The notes under the pieces: generated by a model
Told to the model about the DNA's origin: nothing
Database searches by the model: none
The model's input: only the letters and a program-made list of their open reading frames with translations
NCBI GenBank assembly: GCA_000182565.2
Contig: KQ257450.1
Length of the DNA stretch: 64,000 nt
DNA from: Spizellomyces punctatus DAOM BR117
Lineage: Eukaryota
Direction: 5' to 3' (one strand)
Translations under genes and position numbers: made by a program
Shown: positions 957-52,623 of the stretch, piece after piece
Numbering within the stretch: the stretch's first letter is position 1
How the letters are laid out: every line of letters starts with the position of its first letter

Positions 957-1150
957 AAAAATGCAGCCAAGTCAATCAATTCCCCGGTCAAGCTCAGCAG
1001 TGGTTCGCGACGAGGACCCTCGCTCTGAGTGTGTTTAAAAATACAGCCCAAGTCGATGAATTCACCGGTGGAACTCAGCAGTGGTTTGCGGCGAGGACGC
1101 TCGTTTCCAGACAGTAAAAATACAGCTCAAGTCGATGAACTCACCGGTCG
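957..1150. repeat. Imperfect tandem repeat, ~79-bp unit, ~2.5 copies
   Basis: aaaaat(a/g)cagc..aagtc.at.aa.tc.ccggt...ctcagcagtggtt.gcg.cgaggac recurs at ~957, ~1037 and ~1116. Confidence 0.75.
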
Positions 1151-1875: not shown

Positions 1876-2009
1876 ATCTGACTTCTGGGACCACCGCTGT
1901 GAACCGCGCTTTGCGACGTCTGAACAAGGAAAGTGCTCCATCGAGGACTCGCCGAGATTTATCTTTGAGGCATATCAATCTCTCGATGGCCCTACCAGTG
2001 ATAATTCAA

Positions 2010-2945
2010 ATTCGTAAATCAGCTTTATTTGTTGAATACATTGAGAGATTATACGACCAGTTGAGCAGACTACCATGAATGCGCTTTGAGATCGGTGAAA
2101 ATGTACGAAAGTTCCTAGCACAAGCTCACCATCGAGCGCCTGGAAAAAGCCAAGGTTGGGCGGTCTTTAGAAGACTTACCATATGCTCATGGTTTATTTG
2201 GGGTGTAATGTGGCCTAGATGGGTAGCTCACAATGATAGTGGAACCGTTTCAAATAAATCAGACATTACCCTTGATACTTGAAACATCATCTGCCCATTC
2301 AAATGCGAAATCAAACTGTTTAAGATGCACTGGCTCGTCCTCTTTCCAATGGTCAGCCCCCAGATACGGATGCGCCAGAGCTTCCAGGACCGTGATGCCT
2401 TTGACGGCTGAAAAAGAAACCTTTTCAACACCATTGTTCTCTAAGAGGAGCCACCGAGAATTGACCTCGGGACCTACATAGTGCGATACCACTGATACTC
2501 ACTATTTAGTGAATACATTGACAAGATTATATCACAAGTTGAGCGGAAGGACTATCATGAACGCGTTTTGAGACAAGAGCTAGGACAAATGTTCACCGTT
2601 GGGCTGAGGTGAACACGATTCGAGACAGTGACCCTGAGAAAAACTAAATCCGAGTAAACTGCTTTTATTTAATAAATAGATTGACAAGATAGTACCACAA
2701 GTTTAGCAGAGGACTAACATGGATGCGCTTCAAGACCGTTCAGAAACAGCAAAGTTTCTAGGACCATCTTACCATTGACGTTGCGAGACGGACAAAACTG
2801 AGAAAAACTAAATCCGAATAAACTGCTGTATTCAATGAATACATTGACAAGATAATATCAAAAACACATTGAGCAGAGGACTAACGTGGATACCTTTGAA
2901 GACCGCAAAGTTTCTATGACAGTCTCACCATTGAATTACTGTGAA
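2010..2945. repeat. Degenerate ~160-bp repeat, 4 copies; copies 1 and 2 are separated by a MAPK fragment
   Basis: (g)aata(c/g)attga.a.gat.....gtt(g)agc.ga..act...(a/g)tg.a..c..tt recurs at ~2033, ~2511, ~2675 and ~2838. Confidence 0.6.
2262..2430 (-). pseudogene. MAP kinase C-terminal fragment (subdomain XI + CD region), frameshifted
   Basis: LKRFLFQPSK / ITVLEALAHPYLGADHWKEDEPVHLKQFDFAFEWADDVSSIK resembles the MAPK motif RITxxEALAHPY...DEP...FDFxFE; no other kinase subdomains are visible nearby. Confidence 0.7.
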
Positions 2946-3040
2946 CACGGTGCAGAGATGGCGTGGAATACCTGTGGCCCCTGTTCTCGTCCGTTAATTA
3001 TGGGCTTTGATTTTAACGAGATATCAAGTGACAAATCGTA

Positions 3041-3220
3041 TCACTCCTACACTGTTAATCGCCGGGCACCTTTTATGGCACACTGCAACTGAGATTGAAA
3101 CCATGCACTTACCGTGACTGAGAAGATGTGAGCAGTGACTGCGAGCATTTTGATAGAGTAAATCCATTACAATCATTACCTAGATTTTGAGGTGGCCGAT
3201 GATAAACAGTGTAGGAGTGG
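3041..3220. mobile_element. MITE, ~180 bp, with ~20-bp TIRs and TA flanks (Tc1/mariner-like)
   Basis: Left end TA|tcactcctacactgttaatc, right end gataaacagtgtaggagtgg|TA; a homologous segment lies inverted at 39570-39680. Confidence 0.7.
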
Positions 3221-5865: not shown

Positions 5866-8029
5866 TGCTACTCCTATCGATGTATTCATCGGACAAGCTG
5901 AGCACTGGTTCGAGGACAAAGCACAGGAGAGCCATTGATGGGTGCGCCTATCGTGTCCAAATGTATCGGTCCGGTTCCTAGCCAGAATTTAGCATTCCCA
6001 TGCTCGCAGGAGGAAAGGCTTAAGGATTCTAAAAAGGGTGTTTCTGTTGGTTGTTTGGGGGCGAGAGGCAACGAAAATTGGATATAGAGTGAGGCGGTGC
6101 GCCGATCGTTTGTCGGGTTCCAGCCAGGTTTTACGCATTCCCGTGCTCACAGGACGGAGATCCTAAAAGAAGGTTTCTGTTGGCTGTTTGGGGGCAAAAG
6201 GAATTGGTTGGACCAGGTGTCACAAATGCGTTCTTTCCCCGTTTCTTTGTGGAAAACACCAGAGACTACTTGGGAATATCGAGTTTTCTGATACCACCAC
6301 GAGACTCGACGGCGTACGAGATCGTATACCAATGTAGACAATTGTGGTGTGCTTGCTGCTTTTTTCGGTGCAAATAGTTAATGCCTTCTATGGCGGTGCT
6401 CTCGTATATGGCTCCGGTGGACCTTTTTATTTCTTTAAACCCAAGCAGCAAATGTCACACTGGTGGGTGATCAGTCCAGCAGATGCGTACGGCCAGGTTC
6501 CTGTTAACCAGAGGTTGGCGGACAAGCAGTTTTTCGGATTTTGAACCATTTTTCGGATTTTGAACCATCACACTGCAGATCAATCGCTCTGACCACTGAT
6601 GAGTCCTACTTTATCCGACAAACAGTGTTCGAATTTGAATTATCACACTGTAGCTCTAACAAATGAGCTATAATTGTATCGAATTTAATGATTGGACTCC
6701 GCAGGTTTTTAATTATTCCTTGCGGGCGAGAAAGGCCAAAGAATCCAAAAAAAGGATGTTAGAGTTGGGGGCGAGAGGCAAAGAGACTTGGTTAGGGGTG
6801 AACCGGGCAGGATTTGGGGGGCGGGCATGGTAATCAGTCCGGTGGTGCATGCGTGCGCGATACATAGAACTCGGCCATTGAATCCACCAGGGATGTCTTC
6901 ATTTGTTATCTGGTATTTGGATAACTCAAAGACCGGTTGGTACTAAAGTAAATTTATTTGTTAAATCACATCCTGTTACTGTTTACACTTTTCGAGAGCT
7001 GTCTGTCTGTCCCCATTATGGGTTCAAAGTCTCATTCCGCAAGGAAGGTGTGCGAGGTAACGTACCAACATTTCTCATCATTTACTGTACACTACTCTTC
7101 CATCCATCTGGCATCATGGATAGAGTTTTTGGCTCGGCACAGAGCCCAGCCGTATGCGGCACCACTCGTTGAATGGGGTGCAGTAGATGCTCGGCAGGTG
7201 CGCCAGCTGCTGGTCAACATTGCAGCCCTGCGTCGTACTCTAGCATCATAGAGGAAGCAAAAATGTGTGAGAGAATCCATAAAAGATTGACATCGTATCG
7301 GCCGACGGGTTGAGTCCCTAACAAAATCTGCTCTACCTTCATGTATACCATGCTCTGATATATCTGGTGTCCTGGATCGACAATGTTTAGCCCACGCAAA
7401 TGCCTTTTTCTCCTTGGACAATACACATCTTCTCACTTTACATCGAGCTTTGTATGCATGCATCCATGTCCGCTCAAGCTCAATGAATCCACTGCCGAGA
7501 TTTGACCTCCATTCTTATTCCCCCCATAAGCTCTCCGTTATATATCCACTTCACCTCGACATGCACAATCTCGCCTTGGTCAGCTCAACTTAATTACACA
7601 CCACCGAGTTACGACCCATTCTTGAATATATCTTTTTTAGTTAGTAAGGATGGAGGTCCAGTCCTTGGGATGGAAGAGTGGGCTAAATGCATTAAAGAAC
7701 CAGCGGTGAGAAAAAACGATATGTACGAACGTTAGTGAGCAGATACGTGGTGACTCTTTCCAGCAAATGGTACTGAGCTTCATAGGGCAACCTTTCATGC
7801 ACAACTTTAGTACCATACTCCCTAATGCACTCGCCATCATCTTGCTCCCTCCATGGATGAACGACAGTTAGAGTGCACTCCGTATGCTATCCACTCGTCA
7901 TATCCTAATGTCGCACTCCACTTATTTCCATGATAAGTGTAAGCAACGCTGCCCCTCCCTTTGCTCTCCACTCGACATAGCTCAATGTCGCTTTCCACTC
8001 TATCTCCATGATGAGTGTACAAGTTATGG

Positions 8030-8145
8030 CCCTACCCGAACCCAAACCTCAACCTGAAACCTAACCCTAGATGCTAACCCGACCGCGAACACTAAACCAA
8101 ACCCTAACCCGGAATGCGACAGGCTAACTCTAATCCAAACCCAAG
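8030..8145. repeat. Degenerate interstitial telomere-like (CCCTAA-variant) tract
   Basis: ccctacccgaacccaaacctcaacctgaaacctaaccctag...ccaaaccctaaccc. Confidence 0.55.
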
Positions 8146-10257
8146 ACATGAGAGGTGAATCTCTATTGCACTCCACCCGAAACCACTCCCATTCTTATTC
8201 CCCATAAGCAACTCTTCTTAATATATCCACCTGCACACCTCACCTCAAGCTCGGGCCAATCAGTTGCAGACAATTCCATACCACAGCCTTACAACTCCCA
8301 AATCTTATCCCCCTAACACAACTCACCCTGATATATCTATTTACATCGGGCTCAAGGCACGCTCAACCCCACTTTTATATATGGGTATCCACATGTCAGC
8401 TTGAGCTCATTTGATGGCCACCGAATTAGGACTCCCAGTCTTAATTCCCATCTACACAATCCAAGCTGAGCATTCGTGTATCTACACCTCAGCTCGAGCT
8501 CAAGACTAGCAATTGCAGACACCACCAAGCTATAACTCTGCGCCTTAATCCTGTCCATACAACCTTGATCTAGTTAGTTGGCTGCCTGATCAGATGGCAC
8601 CAAGGGAAAACTTGACGGTTTAACTTTGATCTCTTCAGTTGCTTGCTTTCTACACATGGCAAATATTCAAAACAAGGTGTTGAATTGTATTTCTGAAATT
8701 ATGCTTATTATCTTGTTCCACAGTACTCTTGCTTTTATTTAGTAATGTTGCGTATTTTCTTGTTGAAATGCTTTTCATCAGGATGGCAATAACTAAGGGA
8801 TCAGCCTTGGCCGCTAAAGCACTAGCAGCTAAATTCACAGTCTCGAGGTTGGTTACGTTTTCAACTAGTTGGACCTTGTCAGTTACTACCATTATTCTGT
8901 GTTCCTGAAGCATTGACACTTCACCTGCTGTTCTATAGATTGTATTCACAATGATTCTTTTCCACTGCTATGCCGACATTCATGATTATCTGGAGTTTCA
9001 GTAATTCTTCTAGTGCCATTTTGATCAACCATGTCATACTGCCATGAAATCTCTTGAGTTGCATAAAAGCATGTTGGGTTATCTTCATGTTCTGATCGAC
9101 TGCAACTCTCCTAGTGCATTACCCCAATTTTGAGACTGCCATCTTGAACAAGGTACAACCATGTCATGCTCGTGCTGACCTTAAGGATATGCCATTGAAT
9201 CTCTCGAGTTGCATAAAGGTCTGTTGGGGTTCCCTTTTTGTTCTGAGTTTTTCTTGTAATTGACCAGAAAGCTACTCTGGCGATGATGCGAAATGCCAAA
9301 AAAAAAGTGCGGCTCAAGTTACAAAAGGATTGAACCTGGTAGGATCAACTACAGCCCATTTTTATGGTGGTCGATCCTTGCATGGCAGAGGCAAGGGCAG
9401 ATCAACTGCCATCTAGAAATATCGCAACCATGAGGAAAATCTTCATTCTTTTAGGTTGCATATCGAGCATTGTTTTGTTGACGGCGTCCATTTTATTACC
9501 CGGAATATTCACACCTGATTTGAAAGAGTGCAAACCCACACTTGCATCGTTCGTGAGCTCTGCAGCAACAAGGGAAAAGACACAACTTTGTACATACAGT
9601 CCATGCTTGTGAAGTGCAGATTTTTTTCTTGCTGTGGTGCGAACTTTGATAATGACAGATGCTAATCGCACTGCTTTCAACGGCACTGCTTTCTGTGTAT
9701 AATGAATACTAGCATCCTGAAAAGTTTTCCATTTCACCATGATCGGTTGATTCGAAAGTAAAAGTACAACGATCGGAGCAAACCCGTCCCGCTGGACATT
9801 CATCGACAAAGCACAACGTGTGCAATGTGTTTGCTTTATCCTCCTTACACACCGTCCAATGATATATGAATGCTTGCTAATGGGCCAAACCTACTACTAT
9901 CATCTGGAGTCAACAACATGTATACCCCATCAAACCCGGGCGTGTTTTCAGCTGCGAAAAGTCTCGTTTATCTGTATATATGGATGGTGCTCCAATGAGT
10001 TTTCTTATGCAATCTAAATTACCAGCCGTGTAGAGCCATGTGTACACTACAAAGTTCACTAATATATATTATGGTAAATGAATTCTGTAGGCAAAGTTTT
10101 CTTATTAGCATATGGTAGTGACTTAATATCATTAAATACAAAGCTGCCTAATGGTCCTTCTGCGGCTTTCAATTCTGACTTTTGCCCTCTTCTCTCTCTC
10201 TCTCTCGCTCTCGCTACGTCTGCTCACACTTGGTCCCAAACACACTGAAATTCCACA

Positions 10258-11050
10258 ATGCGCCAAATCCTGGAAAACTCCCGCTCAGAGGTAACTCCCA
10301 GTAGAGTACCCTACACGATGGCCCTCCGCCAGTCGTATTCCTTGCGGACGTTTCCACATGTGGTACAAGAAGTAGATCAGGCCAGCTTGAGGTTGCTTCG
10401 GGCCACCGTACATCGGACGATTGTTGAGAGATTCACAAGGAATAATCTCGATGTATCTCGGTTGGTGGAACAACTGACCACCTTCCTGTGTCCGCAAGAG
10501 GAGGCCACGACCGAAGACCTCTACCGGTTCCAGAGGCTCTTGGGTGAGCACTTGTTCATCTCGGACAATGACATGGCAGAGGCGTTGCAACTAGAAGAGC
10601 TGGACGAAGCCTACCTCCCAGAGGAAGGTTCTCAAGTCCACCACATCCGCAGCTGGGCCCTTGCTGTGAGTGATATGCAACGGCTCCTCTCCCAGTGGGA
10701 CTTCTCCTTCAATCTTCCACATTGTTAGTCCCCGAATCTTCACTGGAGGAATCCTCACTGGGGAAACTGCTGTCCCCACCTCCACCCTCACTCCCATTCC
10801 CACCCGCACGACCATCCGCATGACCACCCGCATGACCACCCTCACCCACATCTCCACGCACGCCTACGGCCACGGCTTCTCCGTGCCGCCGCGTCAGCCC
10901 AGCCCGATGCAGCGATTCCAAGTGCTGGCCCCTGGTAGGTGGAGACTGTCATCGTATCACTGGGACAGGTGCCTTTTGGATATCCGTTACGGCCGTAGAG
11001 GTAATACACCTGGCGAGGGCTCCACCACACTTGCTCGTCGAACTAGCTTG
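10258..11050 (+). pseudogene. Decayed ORF of unknown family (copy A of an inverted pair)
   Basis: 156-aa ORF, followed by an out-of-frame Pro/Ser-rich tail with TGA stops inside a 12-bp repeat (cccgcaYgacca); an inverted paralog lies at 11085-11578. Confidence 0.5.
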
Positions 11051-12811: not shown

Positions 12812-15800
12812 ATGTCACCGATCTACATCATCCTTGTCCTTGTCGCCACTGTGCTGGCCGACGATCCTTGGCCTTCTTGGCCTACCCCATACCCCATGTA
12901 TCAAGGATTGGCGGCCGATGGCACTATATTTCCAAACCCCCCAAATACGAGCACTCCCTTTTTCGTCCCGTACAATGGATCCTGGTCAGCTCCAACTCGC
13001 TCGTTCCCGCTTCCTGCGGTAGGTCCCGCCAGTGATGCCCGGAAGGCGCTTAACAAATCCATCACCCTCCGTGTGGGTGTCTCCGTATATGGGAGCGTTT
13101 GTACACCTGACCTCGACTTTTATTCGCCGCCCGACTGTGATGTACTGACTGAAACGCGAACGGCGACATTGCTGGCCCAAGAAGAGATCAATGCAAATCC
13201 ATTGATTCTGCCGGACGCCAAACTTGAGGTGGTTTTCCTCGGTAAGTACTACAGTTGAGAATAGATGTAAGAGACTCGCTTCTGGGGGTTGTGATGTTTG
13301 CTAAAGAGTCTGTGCCCTGTTTTATTCGTCTCCATCCAGACAATGACTTTCCTGACTTGACAATCCGCTCAACCGTAACGGGCTTTACGGTGGCAAACCC
13401 ACCTTTATCCTTGATGCTGGGATCAAGTCTAGATTCCGACACGATGGTAACAGCTGCATATACCAGCGCCTTCAGCGTAAGTGCAAGCAGCGGGATCCGG
13501 CAAGATAGAGTGCGTTCTAACCTTGGTCTGTCAAATAGTTCCCTCAAATTGGCGTTAGATCGGACTCACCCGTATTCACAGCATATCATGACAACTACAA
13601 GGTGATATTCGCTAGCGCTTTCTGGTCAAATCCTCCCATGCTCTGGACCTGCGCTAATATTTACATCGCTCCATTTAGTATTTTTGGCGCCCCTCCAGTG
13701 GAGGACAGCGTTACGTCAACATGGCTTTGATTGCACAATCCTTTAACTGGAAACAGGTGGGCATCATCGGCGGACAAGATCAGTATTCGACCACGGGTAA
13801 GCTCCATTAATTTGCACTGTGAGCCACTCTTTAATACCTTGGCTTCCAATCATTTCTCATCTGCCGCGGTTTTATTTTACATACAGCTGCCCAACAGCTT
13901 TCGGATGCATGTCATGAAATGGGAATCACAGTCATATCGCAGCTTGCCTTCAAATGGAGTGTGTCAAAAAGGGATCCCACCGCCTGTTATTGTTTAAACT
14001 GTAATACTATGAACCCGGACTGGAATGCGATCAACATGACGACATGCAAGAGAGAGCTTTCTTCAGGATTTGCTCAATTGAAGGGAACGGATCTTCGAGT
14101 GTTTTATGTGCTCATGGGAGGCGAGTACCTGATAGATCCCCTTCTGCTTTATTTTACTGCAAGGTAAAGCCAAGTTCCATTGCATTTAATACTGCGTCTA
14201 GAAATAGTGGCAAAAACAGTGTTGTTAATCGCTTCTTCCCACGTCTACAGCGAATTCGGTTTGGTGGGCGAAGATTATGTCTGGATTACAAACTTGGTAA
14301 AAGAAATGGGTCTTTTCGTTGAACGGTTTTATCGCACGGTGATTTTTGATTTAACCTTTTTTTGTTTATTATTCATCCCACAGCCCGTCAATAACTATCC
14401 TGATCGTTATATGGTCACAAATTTTGGTAAAGACTACCTCCCAAAGTTACGAGGACTGCTGGTACCAGACGATGCACCGACCATGAACGATGAAACCAAT
14501 CCAACAGAAGCGCTACAGCACCTTTTGGGTATATGGCCATCATTCGTTGCGCAGAATTTAGAACGGTAGGAATCTTGTAGTTGGGGGTATGGTCAACGTT
14601 TTTGCGGAGAATGGTGCTTGACTCGTATCTGTGTTCTCTAGCGTTCAGACCAGTGGCTCCATAGGGGATTTCAACGTGCCGTCTCTCCGTATTAGGTACG
14701 TAAATTCTGCATTGGTTACAAGGATGATCAGCTAGTTTGCCAATATTGACAGAATTCTATCCTTTCTAGAGATTACTATGACATTATGTATTATTGTACG
14801 TTGATGCTGGGAGCTCGCAATATTTTTTGTTCTGAACAATGTATATTTTCTCCAGTTGCCAATGCCGTCGATCTAATCCTCAACAGCCAAAACCTTACAA
14901 TGAACGACTGGTATTCCGAGAAGCTTTACAAGCAGCTTACGATAGATGTCTGGAATTCTACTGGATACATTTCGACTACTGGACAGTACATTTTGACAGA
15001 AAATGGCGATAGAGTAATGTAAGTGGGGTTTTGGCGTTCGGTTTCTTGTTCACGGTATGTGCAACGTTTACTCACATATGCATTTTTCTTTTGTTGTCAG
15101 TCCGAGCTTTGTTTACCAAATGGATGGAATTAATTGGGACACATCGCCCGCTATTGCTGCAATTGTTGAAAACACTCTAAAGTTCGAGGGCCATTCCGGA
15201 GCTACATGGTAAAGAAAACCAGTTCCATTACGACTGTAATATGTACTGGCCTTTGTCGCATGCTAAAAGTTTTCTTGCCGCCCTCTTTTGTATCTGATCA
15301 GGTTTGGCAGTCGGTTGACCGTCCCTCCCGACCATCCTATCCTGCACCTACAACAAGTTTCCGTCCACGATGGTCTCGGTGCAACGTTCACAGCCTTATA
15401 CACAGCAGCCATAGCGGTCTGTACGGCAAGTCTTGTCACCATTGTTGTACTGCGAAAGGATAAACGCATGACAAAACGTAGCCCTGTGTTCATTGTCAAT
15501 ATCCTGGTGAGAAAATCCATTCTGTTCGTGATACTTTGTCCCGATCATCTACGATTTTTATCTAATATTGTGGGGTATCTTATAGTTGGGATTAATATGT
15601 GTCTTGGCGACTATATACCCGAATGTCTTTGGTACAACGCCTCAGACATGTGCGATTGAGCGATGGACTCAAGGCATAGGATTTGCGGTGGTCATGGTAC
15701 GTTTGCCGCGCAATTTATTAAACTGATTTGATGGGCAAAAGGTCATGAACGATTGATGCGCTTCTTCTTTTACAGGGAAATGTTGCAGCAAAGGCATACC

Positions 15801-47980: not shown

Positions 47981-49532
47981 ATGTCTAGAGCCCGTCCTTT
48001 GAACCCAAAGCCCATATTTGACGAGGAGCTAGTCCTTGAAGCATTCAGGAAAAACAAGATCAAAGAGTCCAATGCTGCTAAACTTTGGCGTTACCTTATA
48101 CAGCAACCCGAGAAAACTATAGACGAGATTCCCGACTTCCCAAAAGCGGCGAGAAAGCTAATTGATGATGAGTTTGTGATAACGACGTCAAAAGTAATAT
48201 CTCGCACCGATGCAAAGGATGGTAGTACGACAAAGCTACTGATAGAGCTACAGGACGGGCAGCGGGTGGAAAGTGTAATCATGCGTTATGGAGAGGTTGA
48301 ACTGGACTGTTTTCCAGAAGAGGAGGAGAGAAGGAAGAGGCGACGGAGGGAAGGGAATGGAGAAGATGGAGAGGAAATACTGGAGTTTCGATCGAATAAA
48401 CGAGCCACGTTGTGCGTTTCGTCTCAAGTAGGGTGTGCCATGGGGTGTACATTTTGTGCAACAGGAACGATGGGACTTCTTTCAAACTTGGCAGCTGGTG
48501 AGATTATCGAGCAGCTCTATCATGCGAACAAGATTGAGAAAATCCGAAATATAGGTTGGCGCAGTCATTTCTCTCCTTATGATGCTACAACTCATTTTAT
48601 TGACGAATTCTCCTGATTAAGTGTTCATGGGTATGGGAGAGCCACTCGACAATTATAATGCAGTCATGGCAGCCGTCCGAGCCATGGTTGATACTGGCCG
48701 GTTTGGCCTTGCCCCTTCAAGGATATCTGTCTCGACCGTAGGAGTCGTACCTAGAATCCATAGTCTGATCAAGGATGCTCCCAACATAGGCCTGGCGCTT
48801 TCCTTGCATGCACCAAACCAGACCCTTCGCCAGCAAATTGTTCCTACCGCCAAAGCTTGGCATGTGGATAGAATACTTTCCGCTTGTGACGCGTTCATAG
48901 ATCACCAGAACGGGTTGATCAAATCTACGAATCGGCGTCGCCATATTCTTGTTGAATATGTCTTAATCAGGGACGTCAATGACTCCCAAGAAACCGCCCA
49001 CGAATTAGGCCAACTGCTGAAGGGGCGACATGTTCTCTTGAACGTCATTCCATATAATCCAACATCAGTACCGCATGATTACAAGACTCCGAATAGAGAA
49101 GACAGTCGTCGCTTCGTGGAGACGGTGCGGGAATACGGCGTTCATACTCTCTTGCGTCAAACCCTAGGAGCAGATGCAGCCAGTGCTTGCGGTCAGCTAG
49201 TCATTGATAATGGCGGACAAAAGACCAGCGGACAGTGTGGGGACGATAAGGGCACAGGAAATGGAGTCGCCGATCTGGAAGATTTGCTACAGAATACTGG
49301 AGCTGGTAAAAATGGAGTAAAAGTATCCATCAAGTATCGCAAGAAAGCCCCGTCACTCGCCACTCCTACTGGTGTGGAACGAAATCCTCTGGACACACTC
49401 CAATCTGGCACGGCAGCTCTTACCAAGAGAAGGTCACGGCTGAAGGTGGCAACATTGTGTGCTTTATGTATATTATTTGCTGTGGTGCTGGGTAGGGTAG
49501 TCCTAAGATCTCTGGGTTTGGCAACTGTATAG
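47981..49532 (+). CDS. RlmN/Cfr-family radical SAM RNA methyltransferase with C-terminal hydrophobic tail; 2 exons
   Basis: [37 protein letters not shown] (CxxxCxxC), [31 protein letters not shown]. Confidence 0.9.
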
Positions 49533-49743
49533 CATAGAAGATATATTTGCATTATTTCATTTGTAACATAGGCGTGGATAATGAGGGGATGTCTTCTGGA
49601 AAGGAGAATGGGATTTGGAATTACAGGAAGATTTACATAGTGCGGAGCCGATGGGTATTGGCACTAGTACATAGATTCCAACCAATTTAATCATAATTTT
49701 ACTCGATTTAGACTCATGAACTGTGGTTTGATCCAAAAAATCC

Positions 49744-49750
49744 TATATAA
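49744..49750 (+). promoter_or_regulatory. Putative TATA box for the Fanzor ORF
   Basis: TATATAA ~75 bp upstream of the ATG at 49822, inside the element. Confidence 0.4.
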
Positions 49751-49821
49751 GTCATCGTGCCCATTTTCCCAGGCTTTCGTCTTTTTCAGATATCATCAAT
49801 GCCACAGATACAGATATCATC

Positions 49822-51688
49822 ATGCCGCCAAAGAAAAAGCAAAAACTCGAAAAACTCGACAAACCCACCTTACATACCTGCAACAAAACTTCCTTTGCAA
49901 AAGCTTTCCTGCCAAACTACCACCAACGGCTTCTAGATTACATCGCCATCATCCATCAACTTGCCGACCACGCTTCCCACGCTCTCAAATTCTACATCCT
50001 ATCTGCACCATCCTTCACCGTGAACGAGGAGACCATCGAAGCGATTCTCTATCTTCTCAACAAGGGGGAGGCTTGGCATCCAAGAAAGGAAGCAAAGAAG
50101 GCATGGCAGGATTGTTTGCTGCCATATGTTCAACAGTACTGCCAAATCGTCGGCTTCGTTCACCCAAATCTACGAGGCGAGCAGCAATCAGTCAATTACC
50201 TGACAGCGAGTATGATGATGAACCTAAAAGTCAACGTTCAAGAGCATTTCATGCAGATGCTCCTTCAGTATATCAATCTGCAGCTCGATGTGAAGAGACA
50301 GAAGCAACTGCCACTGAAAAGCGATGCACAGAAAGCTTTCTTTACTCGACTATGCTATTTGAAGTCAGTTTTCCTTTTCGAAACCATGCCAGAATCGCTG
50401 GATGACTTGAGCATTCTTGAAAATGAGATTTTTAGAAGAGATCTGGACACTTAACCTGCCATTTCCTGATCAAGACAAGCCACTTGCCTACCTCATTGCC
50501 ATTGACGCGATGTCCTTCTTGCCTGCTTACTGTCGGTTGTCAAGCCTATATGAAAAGCATGGATTTCAACGGTTCAGTGCCATCCCACTTCGCTGCTCCC
50601 TCATCCAAAGCCATATTCGCATCGACACGGTCATTCTCTACGCCCACATCCTCTGCATCACCCGCCAAGGAGCAGAAGCTGTAGAGAAGGTCGATTTATG
50701 GTTGCGTGTCTGTAATCTGCGGAACAAGGCTTTTAGATCTCGCCGCGGTATGCAGTTTGAAGGCTCGATCACAACGGATGGAACCTCAGTGTCTGTATAC
50801 CTAAAGCACCCAGAAGCAGACAAGTATGGAAAGCGCGGAGCGAGAAAGTCAGCAAAGAGTTTAGAGGACGAAGTTAAAGTGCAATACATGGAGAAAAACT
50901 TACCTGCTTGTCGAGCAGCAGAGAATGTCGTTGTTATCGACCCAAACAAGCGCAATATTCTCTACTGCCAAGACAACAGTGGTGTGACATTTCGCTACAC
51001 CGCCAACCAGCGAGCCATGGAGACTGGAAGCCATCGATTTGCAAAAGAACGGCAGCAGATGAAGAAGGAAGCGGGAATTGACCTCATAGAATCATATATC
51101 CCTAGTCACAAGACAATGAACCTCATGGACTTCATGCGCTATCTCCTCGTTTGCCATCATGCAGATTCGGATTGTCGCAAGGAATTCTACTCCCACCCTG
51201 CCCACACGCGATGGAAATGGCACTCCTTCATCAATCAGCAGCAAAGTGAATCAAACCTCATATCCAACTTGTGCAACAAATACGGTGAAAACTTTACCAT
51301 TGTGATGGGTGATTGGAGCGATGCCGGTCGAACTGCAAGATTTCAGACCTCATCAAAGACAAAAGGTTGGCGCACCCTCTTTAAGCGCAACAGGATCAAC
51401 TGCTTCCTTCTTGACGAGTATAAAACCTCATCTGTCTGCCCTCACTGTTCCTCTGGCATTGAAAAAGGCTTCAAAACACGACCTCATTCAAGACCTTGGC
51501 GCCGTCGCGAAGGCAAGATTGAAAAAGTCCATGGATTGCTGGGTTGTACCAACCCTAACTGTCAGCAAGCCTGGACGATGCGCTACTGGAATCGAGATAC
51601 ACTGAGCACCTGCAACATGCTGATGATCGTGCAATCAATGTTGGATGGACATGGTAGATCAGAAGTGTTCAGCCTGTTCCAGCCGTAG
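49822..51688 (+). pseudogene. Fz1: Fanzor1 (eukaryotic TnpB-like RNA-guided RuvC endonuclease, SpuFz1-like), split by a +1 frameshift at ~50429-50433
   Basis: NLS-like MPPKKKQK; ITTDGTSVSV; RuvC-I VVIDPN (D at 50939); IVMGDWS; RuvC-II LLDEYKTSSVCPHC (E at 51416); CTNPNC zinc finger; RuvC-III WNRD (D at 51596); intronless; joins to ~620 aa if one T is removed. Confidence 0.93.
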
Positions 51689-51702
51689 CGTAGCGTAGAT
51701 TA

Positions 51703-51792
51703 GTTTTTCCGAACCGGTTGTCGCCGGTTTATTCCCTGGTGCGGGTGCTAGTGCCAATACCCATTGGCTCCGCACTATTTTGAGTTACCCTT
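51703..51792 (+). ncRNA. Predicted Fanzor omegaRNA: ~75-nt scaffold (51703-51777) plus ~15-nt flank-derived guide
   Basis: Follows the ORF and overlaps the right TIR; hairpins aaccgg/ccggtt (51712-51729) and tggtgcgg..gctagtg/cattggc.ccgcacta; layout matches the SpuFz1 omegaRNA as I recall it. Confidence 0.8.
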
Positions 51793-51918
51793 TTGGATTC
51801 ACCGTACTTCATATGCTTTGGAGGCCAACTTTGGTGTCACGTGAATATACAAGCTCCGTATGTTGTTTGTTGCGACAATTTGGTAGATTCATAACTCATC
51901 GTTAGATCGACACCAATA

Positions 51919-52623
51919 ATGGAACCTATAAACAGCGTGGAGTCAGTAGACGATCCCTACCTGTTATACCCCGAACTTGCCATCGCCACACCTCCAACCT
52001 CACGCATTAGACGGCTTGTCGCTTACGACTGGGCAAACGGCTTTGTTAGCCCATTCAGAGAAACCCCAACCGACGTATGCACGTCATTGGCAGAATACCT
52101 CCGCCTTCACTCTCTAGTTTCTGCTAGAGATAGCTTGTTGGACTTGGGATGCGGGAATGGAGCTTTGCTTTTTGGTGTGGTGAAAGCTCTTGGCCCTGTG
52201 GCGACCTCTTGTTCCCTGGTGGGTCTGGATCTCGACCTAACGTTGGTTGAGGAAGCTGCCAAAACAGCGACAGGGGATGCGATTATACGCAATCAACGAG
52301 TTCAGTTGTTTGTGGGAGATATTGTGAGCCGCAATCCTGTTTCTCAGGTGCATCCACGTTTGAGATCAAACATCGATGGCATCTCCATGGTGTCGACAAC
52401 AACCACTGTTGATACCCTCCTAGATGATGCTTCAGTAATACTGCTATATCTATTACCAGAAGCAATAGGAAAGCTTTTGCCGAGTCTTCGTCATCAAATC
52501 CATCTTGGCAAGTTGGTTGTAAGCATTAAATGGCCATTAACATCTCCGGATTTGGATCTCTCCGAGTTCCTCTGCACACATCAGGATGGATATCTGGTTT
52601 ACAGACGTAGCATTAAGGCTTAA
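51919..52623 (+). CDS. Class I SAM-dependent methyltransferase (FAM173-like), intronless
   Basis: SPFRETP, LLDLGCGNG (motif I), VGLDLD, VILLYLLP, VVSIKWPL. Confidence 0.75.
   Translation: MEPINSVESVDDPYLLYPELAIATPPTSRIRRLVAYDWANGFVSPFRETPTDVCTSLAEYLRLHSLVSARDSLLDLGCGNGALLFGVVKALGPVATSCSLVGLDLDLTLVEEAAKTATGDAIIRNQRVQLFVGDIVSRNPVSQVHPRLRSNIDGISMVSTTTTVDTLLDDASVILLYLLPEAIGKLLPSLRHQIHLGKLVVSIKWPLTSPDLDLSEFLCTHQDGYLVYRRSIKA

Follow-up and report, generated by a model that had tools for sequence, protein, structure and literature searches.

A SPu-1 transposon copy of Spizellomyces punctatus DAOM BR117 with a probably inactivated Fanzor1 gene and a retained omegaRNA

Can a transposon copy that displays every part of a eukaryotic RNA-guided nuclease system still make the nuclease, or does it hold only the parts on which a nuclease from elsewhere could act? 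The question is raised by a 2136-bp element at positions 49640-51775 of a 64,000-nucleotide stretch of Spizellomyces punctatus DAOM BR117 (contig KQ257450.1, assembly GCA_000182565.2), the whole of which we call the window. An earlier note, made from the letters of this DNA, had read the element as a complete Fanzor1 locus encoding a programmable DNA endonuclease together with its guide RNA. We conclude with high confidence that it is a degenerate copy of the DNA transposon SPu-1 (also written Spu-1), in which the nuclease gene has been inactivated while the ends, the target-adjacent motif (TAM), the omegaRNA and the guide are intact. A full-length nuclease is beyond this copy as it stands; most likely its protein is dead, but its omegaRNA could still act in trans.

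Family, mechanism and the locus itself have all been published before. SPu-1, of the Fanzor family that was described first, is the prototype Fanzor element of Bao and Jurka (2013; PMC3627910), who describe it as ∼ 2100 bp long with terminal inverted repeats (TIRs) of 33 bp as well as presumed target-site duplications (TSDs) of TA, and who count 17 full-length copies, of which nine are intact. Saito et al. (2023; PMC10432273) give the Spu-1 inverted repeats as 30 nt and report 42 Fz loci in the S. punctatus genome, 19 of them full-length, as well as 134 protein-less 'ghost' loci. According to the same paper, the complex of Fanzor1 and omegaRNA cuts double-stranded DNA that bears 5'-CATA beside the guide match, and the catalytic residues of SpuFz1 are D383, N385, E541 and D606. 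The structure likewise dates from 2023, and no Fanzor family has been studied better. What we add is small: two lesions that break the frame; private changes with a bias towards CpG transitions, which have removed three guide-contacting arginines; and the finding that the omegaRNA remains well formed. The locus thus offers one example of a Fanzor copy that decays while its RNA and its ends persist.

The nuclease gene and its lesions

One intronless gene fills the element, and it does so in two reading frames, with 210 aa encoded at 49822-50454 and 421 aa at 50423-51688. Both pieces match the SpuFz1 chain of structure 8GKH in phmmer searches, the first with E 1.4e-106 over residues 396-610 and the second with E 2.4e-233 over residues 608-1026 of the maltose-binding protein fusion. 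The first part of the gene (49822..50430, + strand, frame 1) comprises 203 codons for the N-terminal WED and REC region and corresponds to the published 'fz' feature of aa 18-214. The second part (50432..51688, + strand, frame 2) comprises 418 codons and the stop, and covers REC, WED, RuvC and the zinc-finger NUC domain. They are separated by a frame break of net +1 base within ATTTTTAGAA (50428..50437, + strand), where the paralogues read on uninterrupted (...ENEILEEIW...). A second lesion, of net -4 nt at ∼ 51670..51680 (+ strand) and not mentioned by the earlier note, leaves the C-terminus as LFQP-stop where the family has R(G/S)VPAVA-stop. When compared by eye with the SpuFz1 DNA, the VPAVA-stop of the family can be read in another frame at 51676-51693. 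The locus therefore holds no uninterrupted full-length Fanzor1 open reading frame (ORF); it belongs to the family by descent, with a gene that is not intact. At its N-terminus the putative nuclear localization signal PPKKKQKLEKL is visible in the sequence.

To place the protein, we built a read-through version with X at the first frame break and aligned it to its paralogues. Its identity to SpuFz1 (P0005) is 83.7% (518 of 619 aligned residues), and P0002, the paralogue closest to it, reaches 89.5% (552 of 617 residues). Among the 75 homologues found at E up to 1e-10, 23 bear the name of S. punctatus DAOM BR117 and the others include proteins of other chytrids. When the PDB was searched at E up to 1 with a profile of 26 relatives, the Spu, Parasitella and Guillardia Fanzor1 structures were the only ones returned; TnpB and Cas12 chains were absent. 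Neither piece was matched by Pfam (E up to 1) or by NCBIfam, TnpB included, and the zinc-ribbon family PF07282 (OrfB_Zn_ribbon / Cas12f1-like TNB) was matched by just three of the 26 relatives. The link to the TnpB/OMEGA superfamily is accordingly taken from the published structure and phylogeny (PMC10432273, PMC3627910) and not from the searches made here. The protein database tags nearly all of P0001-P0073 with PF26935.1; the Pfam search made here gave no such match for the pieces in the window or for SpuFz1.

The catalytic centre is well preserved. D383, N385, E541 and D606 (SpuFz1 numbering throughout) are conserved within VVVIDPNKR, FLLDEYKTS and YWNRDTLST, and all six TAM-contact residues are conserved as well. 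All four zinc-finger cysteines are retained (CPHC and CTNPNC), and KTSSVCPHC...GCTNPNC aligns cysteine by cysteine with SpuFz1; the motif, a C4 zinc finger after [TS][TS], is defined in PMC3627910. The copy carries, in addition, the replacements R157Q, R268C and R481Q, and these are three of the four residues that PMC10432273 lists as contacts to the guide-RNA backbone. The split RuvC triad (IDPN / DEYKTS / NRD), the zinc finger and the kinship with SpuFz1 that had been proposed for this gene are thus borne out by the alignment. The description of the locus as complete, with an encoded programmable endonuclease, cannot be upheld for this copy in its present state, because the gene is broken twice and three guide-contacting arginines are lost.

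The substitutions that are private to this copy point in the same direction. Restricted to alignment columns in which six or more S. punctatus paralogues share one residue without exception, the count gives 18 private amino-acid changes, 12 of which replace an arginine; 10 of the 18 turn Arg into Gln, Cys or His and correspond to transitions at CG. The private count of Arg-to-Gln/Cys/His/Trp changes in eight paralogues, treated as a control, is 0-2 each. As 5-methylcytosine (5mC) is restricted to transposons in Spizellomyces (PMC12695648), deamination of methylated CG is likely to be the cause.

The reading would be altered if the first frameshift, which lies in a short run rich in T, had arisen by faulty sequencing or assembly and the copy encoded a full-length, active Fanzor1. 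The break does amount to one net base within ATTTTTAGAA, the read-through has no internal stop over 622 codons, and the catalytic triad, N385, the six TAM-contact residues and the zinc-finger cysteines have all been kept. The published record of the locus, however, has identical letters, and its annotators placed the coding sequence (CDS) 3' of the break. We also mapped four sequencing runs (X1, X3, X10 and X22) at 97% likeness. No insertion or deletion is listed in any of them, but coverage of the bin that holds the frameshift (50391-50471) is thin: the word depth is 30.8 in the X3 contigs and ∼ 1 in the RNA run X22, and X1 and X10 have no depth there. X3 may be the assembly's own data, so that the runs do not settle the frameshift independently. 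An assembly error at the first break would, moreover, leave the second lesion near the 3' end in place, and the loss of three guide-contacting arginines together with the CpG-biased private changes indicates relaxed constraint. We therefore regard an intact gene hidden by a faulty base as unlikely. The same runs are informative about the insertion itself: X1 and X3 contigs cross from the unique left flank into the left repeat, and one from X1 leads out of the right repeat into the right flank, with 0 differences in each case. Both data sets, X1 and X3, thus contain the insertion.

The gene has been annotated as SPPG_00246 (50510..51688, + strand; CDS 1931..3109 of the published record), an N-terminally truncated model of 392 aa that starts 3' of the frameshift; this product of the window is itself P0001 among the homologues, with 100% identity. 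The existence of the model, and the fact that the RuvC and zinc-finger parts lie inside it, might suggest a working, shortened protein that the host has recruited for another role. Yet the model begins within REC and lacks the TAM-reading residues R96, Q129, Q130 and N133 of the N-terminal WED/REC part, and the 203 codons upstream of the break are open and 85-90% family-like, which marks the truncation as a by-product of the frameshift. Both transposon ends are also retained, and on the assumption that first mates are sense-strand reads, sense RNA covers the ORF at a depth of 0-0.6. Host recruitment is, in our view, highly improbable, and we continue to treat the gene as inactivated.

Strand-resolved RNA reads over the gene allow more than one interpretation. 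Over the 5' part of the Fanzor ORF (49743-50147) the first mates of X22 map nearly exclusively to the - strand (depth 5-38 versus 0-0.6), and they map to the + strand at the 3' end of the neighbouring gene and in the omegaRNA region. Depending on the library type, the minus-strand reads would represent sense mRNA or family-level antisense RNA, and cross-mapping from paralogues is likely.

Ends, TAM, omegaRNA and guide

In contrast to the gene, the ends of the element are preserved. A repeat search found inverted arms of 34 nt at 49637-49670 and 51745-51778 with 94% complementarity. Their 28-bp cores, the left inverted repeat (49640..49667, + strand) and the right inverted repeat (51748..51775, - strand), agree at 27 of 28 positions, and the sole mismatch is a G to A inside a CG of the right repeat. 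A 25-nt end pattern, searched with up to three mismatches, occurs at just two sites in the window, namely the element's own ends, and at least two matches were seen in 0 of 100 shuffles. The earlier claim of a 2136-bp element with 28-bp TIRs and TA on both sides is thus confirmed. The published record has 30-nt 'end' features that correspond to 49638-49667, TA included, and to 51748-51777. With a length of ∼ 2.1 kb, TIRs of the family type (30-33 bp) and an upstream CA, the element has the hallmarks of SPu-1, and its left repeat is that of the SpuFz1 locus save for a few bases (by eye). No second right end or omegaRNA was found in the window at up to three mismatches; ghost ends, which differ at seven positions (PMC10432273), could escape this search.

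TA is present on both flanks (49638-49639 and 51776-51777), and CA at 49636-49637 precedes the left one. The left flank therefore reads CATA (49636..49639, + strand). For the SPu-1 family 5'-CATA is the TAM; PMC10432273 describes a conserved CA upstream of the 5' inverted repeat, and reports that mutation of any TAM base abolishes cutting. The right TA (51776..51777, + strand) is a putative TSD, in the 'putative TA TSDs' wording of PMC3627910. TA is invariant across all published copies compared, such that occupied sites fit a duplication or element termini alike. We argue from the CATA TAM that TA would be a true target duplication, for an empty site would read CATA only if it had kept a TA.

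TA flanks, being a mariner hallmark (PMC3627910), together with a weak match to the Tc3 transposase domain 1u78 (E 0.0046), could also be taken to indicate an autonomous or Tc1/mariner-type transposon with an overlooked transposase. The Tc3-like match, seen with phmmer, covers residues 119-207 of the second piece (50777-51043), which to us is probably spurious since this stretch lies in the WED/RuvC part and aligns fully with SpuFz1. The Fanzor gene fills the 2136 bp, and the two other ORFs of the element that we tested (229 aa in another frame and 82 aa antisense) have no Pfam match, in line with the earlier claim that there is no transposase ORF. Saito et al. (PMC10432273) likewise report that no transposase flanked by Spu-1 inverted repeats was found in the S. 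punctatus genome. An overlooked transposase is, on these grounds, scarcely credible. The related proposal that the element is mobilised in trans must, with no transposase bearing Spu-1 ends reported for the genome, stay conjectural.

Within the right end of this SPu-1 copy lies an omegaRNA-like region. In PMC10432273 the omegaRNA consists of a 75-nt scaffold followed by a guide of 14-15 nt and is transcribed from the right end of the element. The corresponding 75-nt scaffold (51703..51777, + strand) runs from just 3' of the stop through the right inverted repeat and TA. Aligned by eye, it can be superimposed on all five published S. punctatus omegaRNAs, which share ...GGCTCC(C)GCACTA and then diverge. 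As all five part company right after ...CGCACTA, sister copies end at the boundaries expected for this element; the positions that had been assigned to the inverted ends, TA, CATA, omegaRNA and guide also agree with the published anatomy (PMC10432273). The scaffold has four differences that are found in none of the five published omegaRNAs (by eye): the 5' T-run is longer by one T, the GGTTCAATCCC stretch has one C changed to T and one A changed to T, and a CG in the right repeat has its C changed to T. The last occupies the same position as the sole mismatch between the left and right repeats.

Despite its private changes the scaffold is predicted to fold well. The 90-nt RNA forms two stem-loops, the second with an 8-nt loop, at a minimum free energy of -33.3 kcal/mol (z -3.84), and 0 of 200 shuffles are as stable; an 8-nt loop in stem 2 is the canonical omegaRNA shape (PMC10432273). 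We also considered a tRNA, given that the omegaRNAs of the family carry a GGTTCAAT-like motif that resembles a T-arm, and rejected it since neither Rfam (E up to 1) nor ARAGORN gave a match on 49400-52000.

The guide region, 14-15 nt of the flank that would form part of the omegaRNA, follows directly after ...CGCACTA (51778..51792, or 51778-51791 if 14 nt; + strand). When the 14-nt guide was searched in the window, it was found at its own position and, with two mismatches, at one site at 14344, which is within chance (at least two sites in 13 of 100 shuffles).

The RNA run X22 has a depth of 1885 at 51687-51767, with the first mate on the + strand, and of ∼ 3 in the bin that holds the guide. 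Of 5211 mapped reads, however, 5149 fit partially, and ∼ 2700 match just 51705-51741. Because they diverge on both sides of this segment, we attribute the peak to other Spu-1 copies or to ghost loci. At position 51715 the X22 reads are split between C and T (1611 of 4198 reads), which matches the variation among the published omegaRNAs.

Decay and possible service in trans

These data are consistent with the following mechanism. The natural target of the guide would be the insertion site in its empty state, where CA-TA runs straight into the right flank. If the guided nuclease cut there, the element could be copied back by homologous repair, as for bacterial TnpB, for which homing has been described (PMC10690162; PMC10432273). 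The occupied site would be spared, because at the right end the four bases ahead of the guide sequence read ACTA and not CATA. Intact paralogues could serve the copy in trans, as they do protein-less ghosts, and PMC10432273 reports that ghost omegaRNAs are active with SpuFz1 in human cells. Frame lesions and CpG-type losses of arginine would be expected of a transposon that is methylated at 5mC and silenced.

We speculate further that the locus is a 'ghost in the making': small indels and a CpG decay driven by methylation would have disabled its gene, its ends, TAM and omegaRNA would have remained functional, and intact paralogous Fanzor1 proteins would guard and re-copy the locus in trans. 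We put this forward as a possibility, and a rather doubtful one. If true, the loss of the protein and the retention of the RNA would be separable steps in the origin of the 134 ghosts.

Several points weigh against a dead gene with a serviceable RNA. Apart from the two lesions, the read-through of 622 codons has no internal stop, and the decay is therefore recent or the first lesion is possibly an assembly error. The scaffold is not pristine either, considering its four private differences. The omegaRNA peak in X22 consists mostly of reads from other copies, and the mapped reads document neither an omegaRNA nor an mRNA of this locus's own. Homing has been shown for no Fanzor, and no SPu-1 transposase is known, as far as PMC10432273 reports. 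Finally, the CpG observed/expected ratio of the whole element is 0.80 and no outlier (window median 0.91; 84 of 310 sliding windows fall at or below the element's value), so that the signal of methylation decay is carried by the private substitutions and not by the CpG content of the element as a whole.

This copy shares 83.7% protein identity with SpuFz1 of SPu-1 (8GKH) but differs from it by the net +1 and net -4 lesions, R157Q, R268C and R481Q, a shorter stretch between left repeat and ATG and the four private scaffold changes. Ghost Spu-1 elements (∼ 550 nt, 134 loci; PMC10432273) have inverted repeats and an omegaRNA but no Fz gene; if its protein is dead, our copy resembles them in offering ends and an omegaRNA for which the Fz protein has to come from elsewhere. 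Unlike the ghosts, it has a gene of nearly full length; the inverted repeats belong to the Fz-locus type, and stem 2 is predicted to carry the canonical 8-nt loop where ghosts have a 3-nt bulge.

Among more distant systems, the IS200/IS605 TnpB-omegaRNA elements (for instance ISDra2) have in common with it a RuvC nuclease, a guide RNA at the right end, a guide derived from the flank and a TAM that is the left flank, as well as a donor protected by the lack of a TAM at the right end (ACTA here). They differ from it in that the present element has a eukaryotic host, an NLS-like N-terminus, a larger REC and inverted-repeat ends with TA flanks instead of hairpin ends; no TnpA partner is known for it. 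With non-autonomous Tc1/mariner elements it shares TA flanks and TIRs, although membership of that superfamily is unproven. It differs in that no DDE transposase lies within it, and PMC10432273 reports none bounded by such ends elsewhere in the genome; confirmed mariners do carry other Fanzor1 elements (PMC3627910).

Published record and surroundings

The earlier note had allowed that this copy might be undescribed. It is in fact catalogued in Supplementary Data 1 of PMC10432273, where it appears under 'Loci with Fz' as NW_015971537.105, gene SPPG_00246, although it is absent from the five S. punctatus loci in the omegaRNA table of that paper. The record was identified through a peptide encoded by the next gene downstream. 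It agrees with the window in the 234-aa protein of that gene, in the distance of 142 nt from repeat to CDS and in the printed DNA. The flanking genes of the record, SPPG_00244 and SPPG_00247, are as in the window, and its 'end' features at 1059..1088 and 3169..3198 are the inverted repeats, at an offset of 48579 to window positions. The record lists its Fanzor hit in two pieces, aa 18-214 and aa 210-635 of SpuFz1. Wherever compared, the DNA of the record equals that of the window, the frameshift region included.

On the left, a radical-SAM 23S rRNA methyltransferase gene has its stop 105 nt before the element; on the right, the ATG of a methyltransferase-like gene follows after 142 nt. The domain of the radical-SAM neighbour is divided between two frames, which fits an intron-bearing neighbourhood and the intron-rich surroundings that had been noticed around the intronless element.

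Upstream of the Fanzor ATG, a TATA-like motif, CTATATAAG (49743..49751, + strand), may serve as a promoter element, and the SpuFz1 locus has a similar TATATAAA at the matching place (by eye). The stretch from the left repeat to the ATG (49668-49821) measures 154 nt here versus 212 nt in the SpuFz1 locus; it is thus ∼ 58 nt shorter (by eye), with the TATA-like motif retained. A short local repeat, CAGATATCATCA...CAGATATCATCATG, stands immediately 5' of the ATG.

Elsewhere in the window, 100 N at 1776-1875 mark an assembly gap. The lowest CpG observed/expected ratios, 0.53-0.62 against the median of 0.91, are found at 6800-10300. Two ORFs in this region (7092-7511 and 9402-9887, both on the - strand) have no Pfam match, and the region may be an old methylated repeat.

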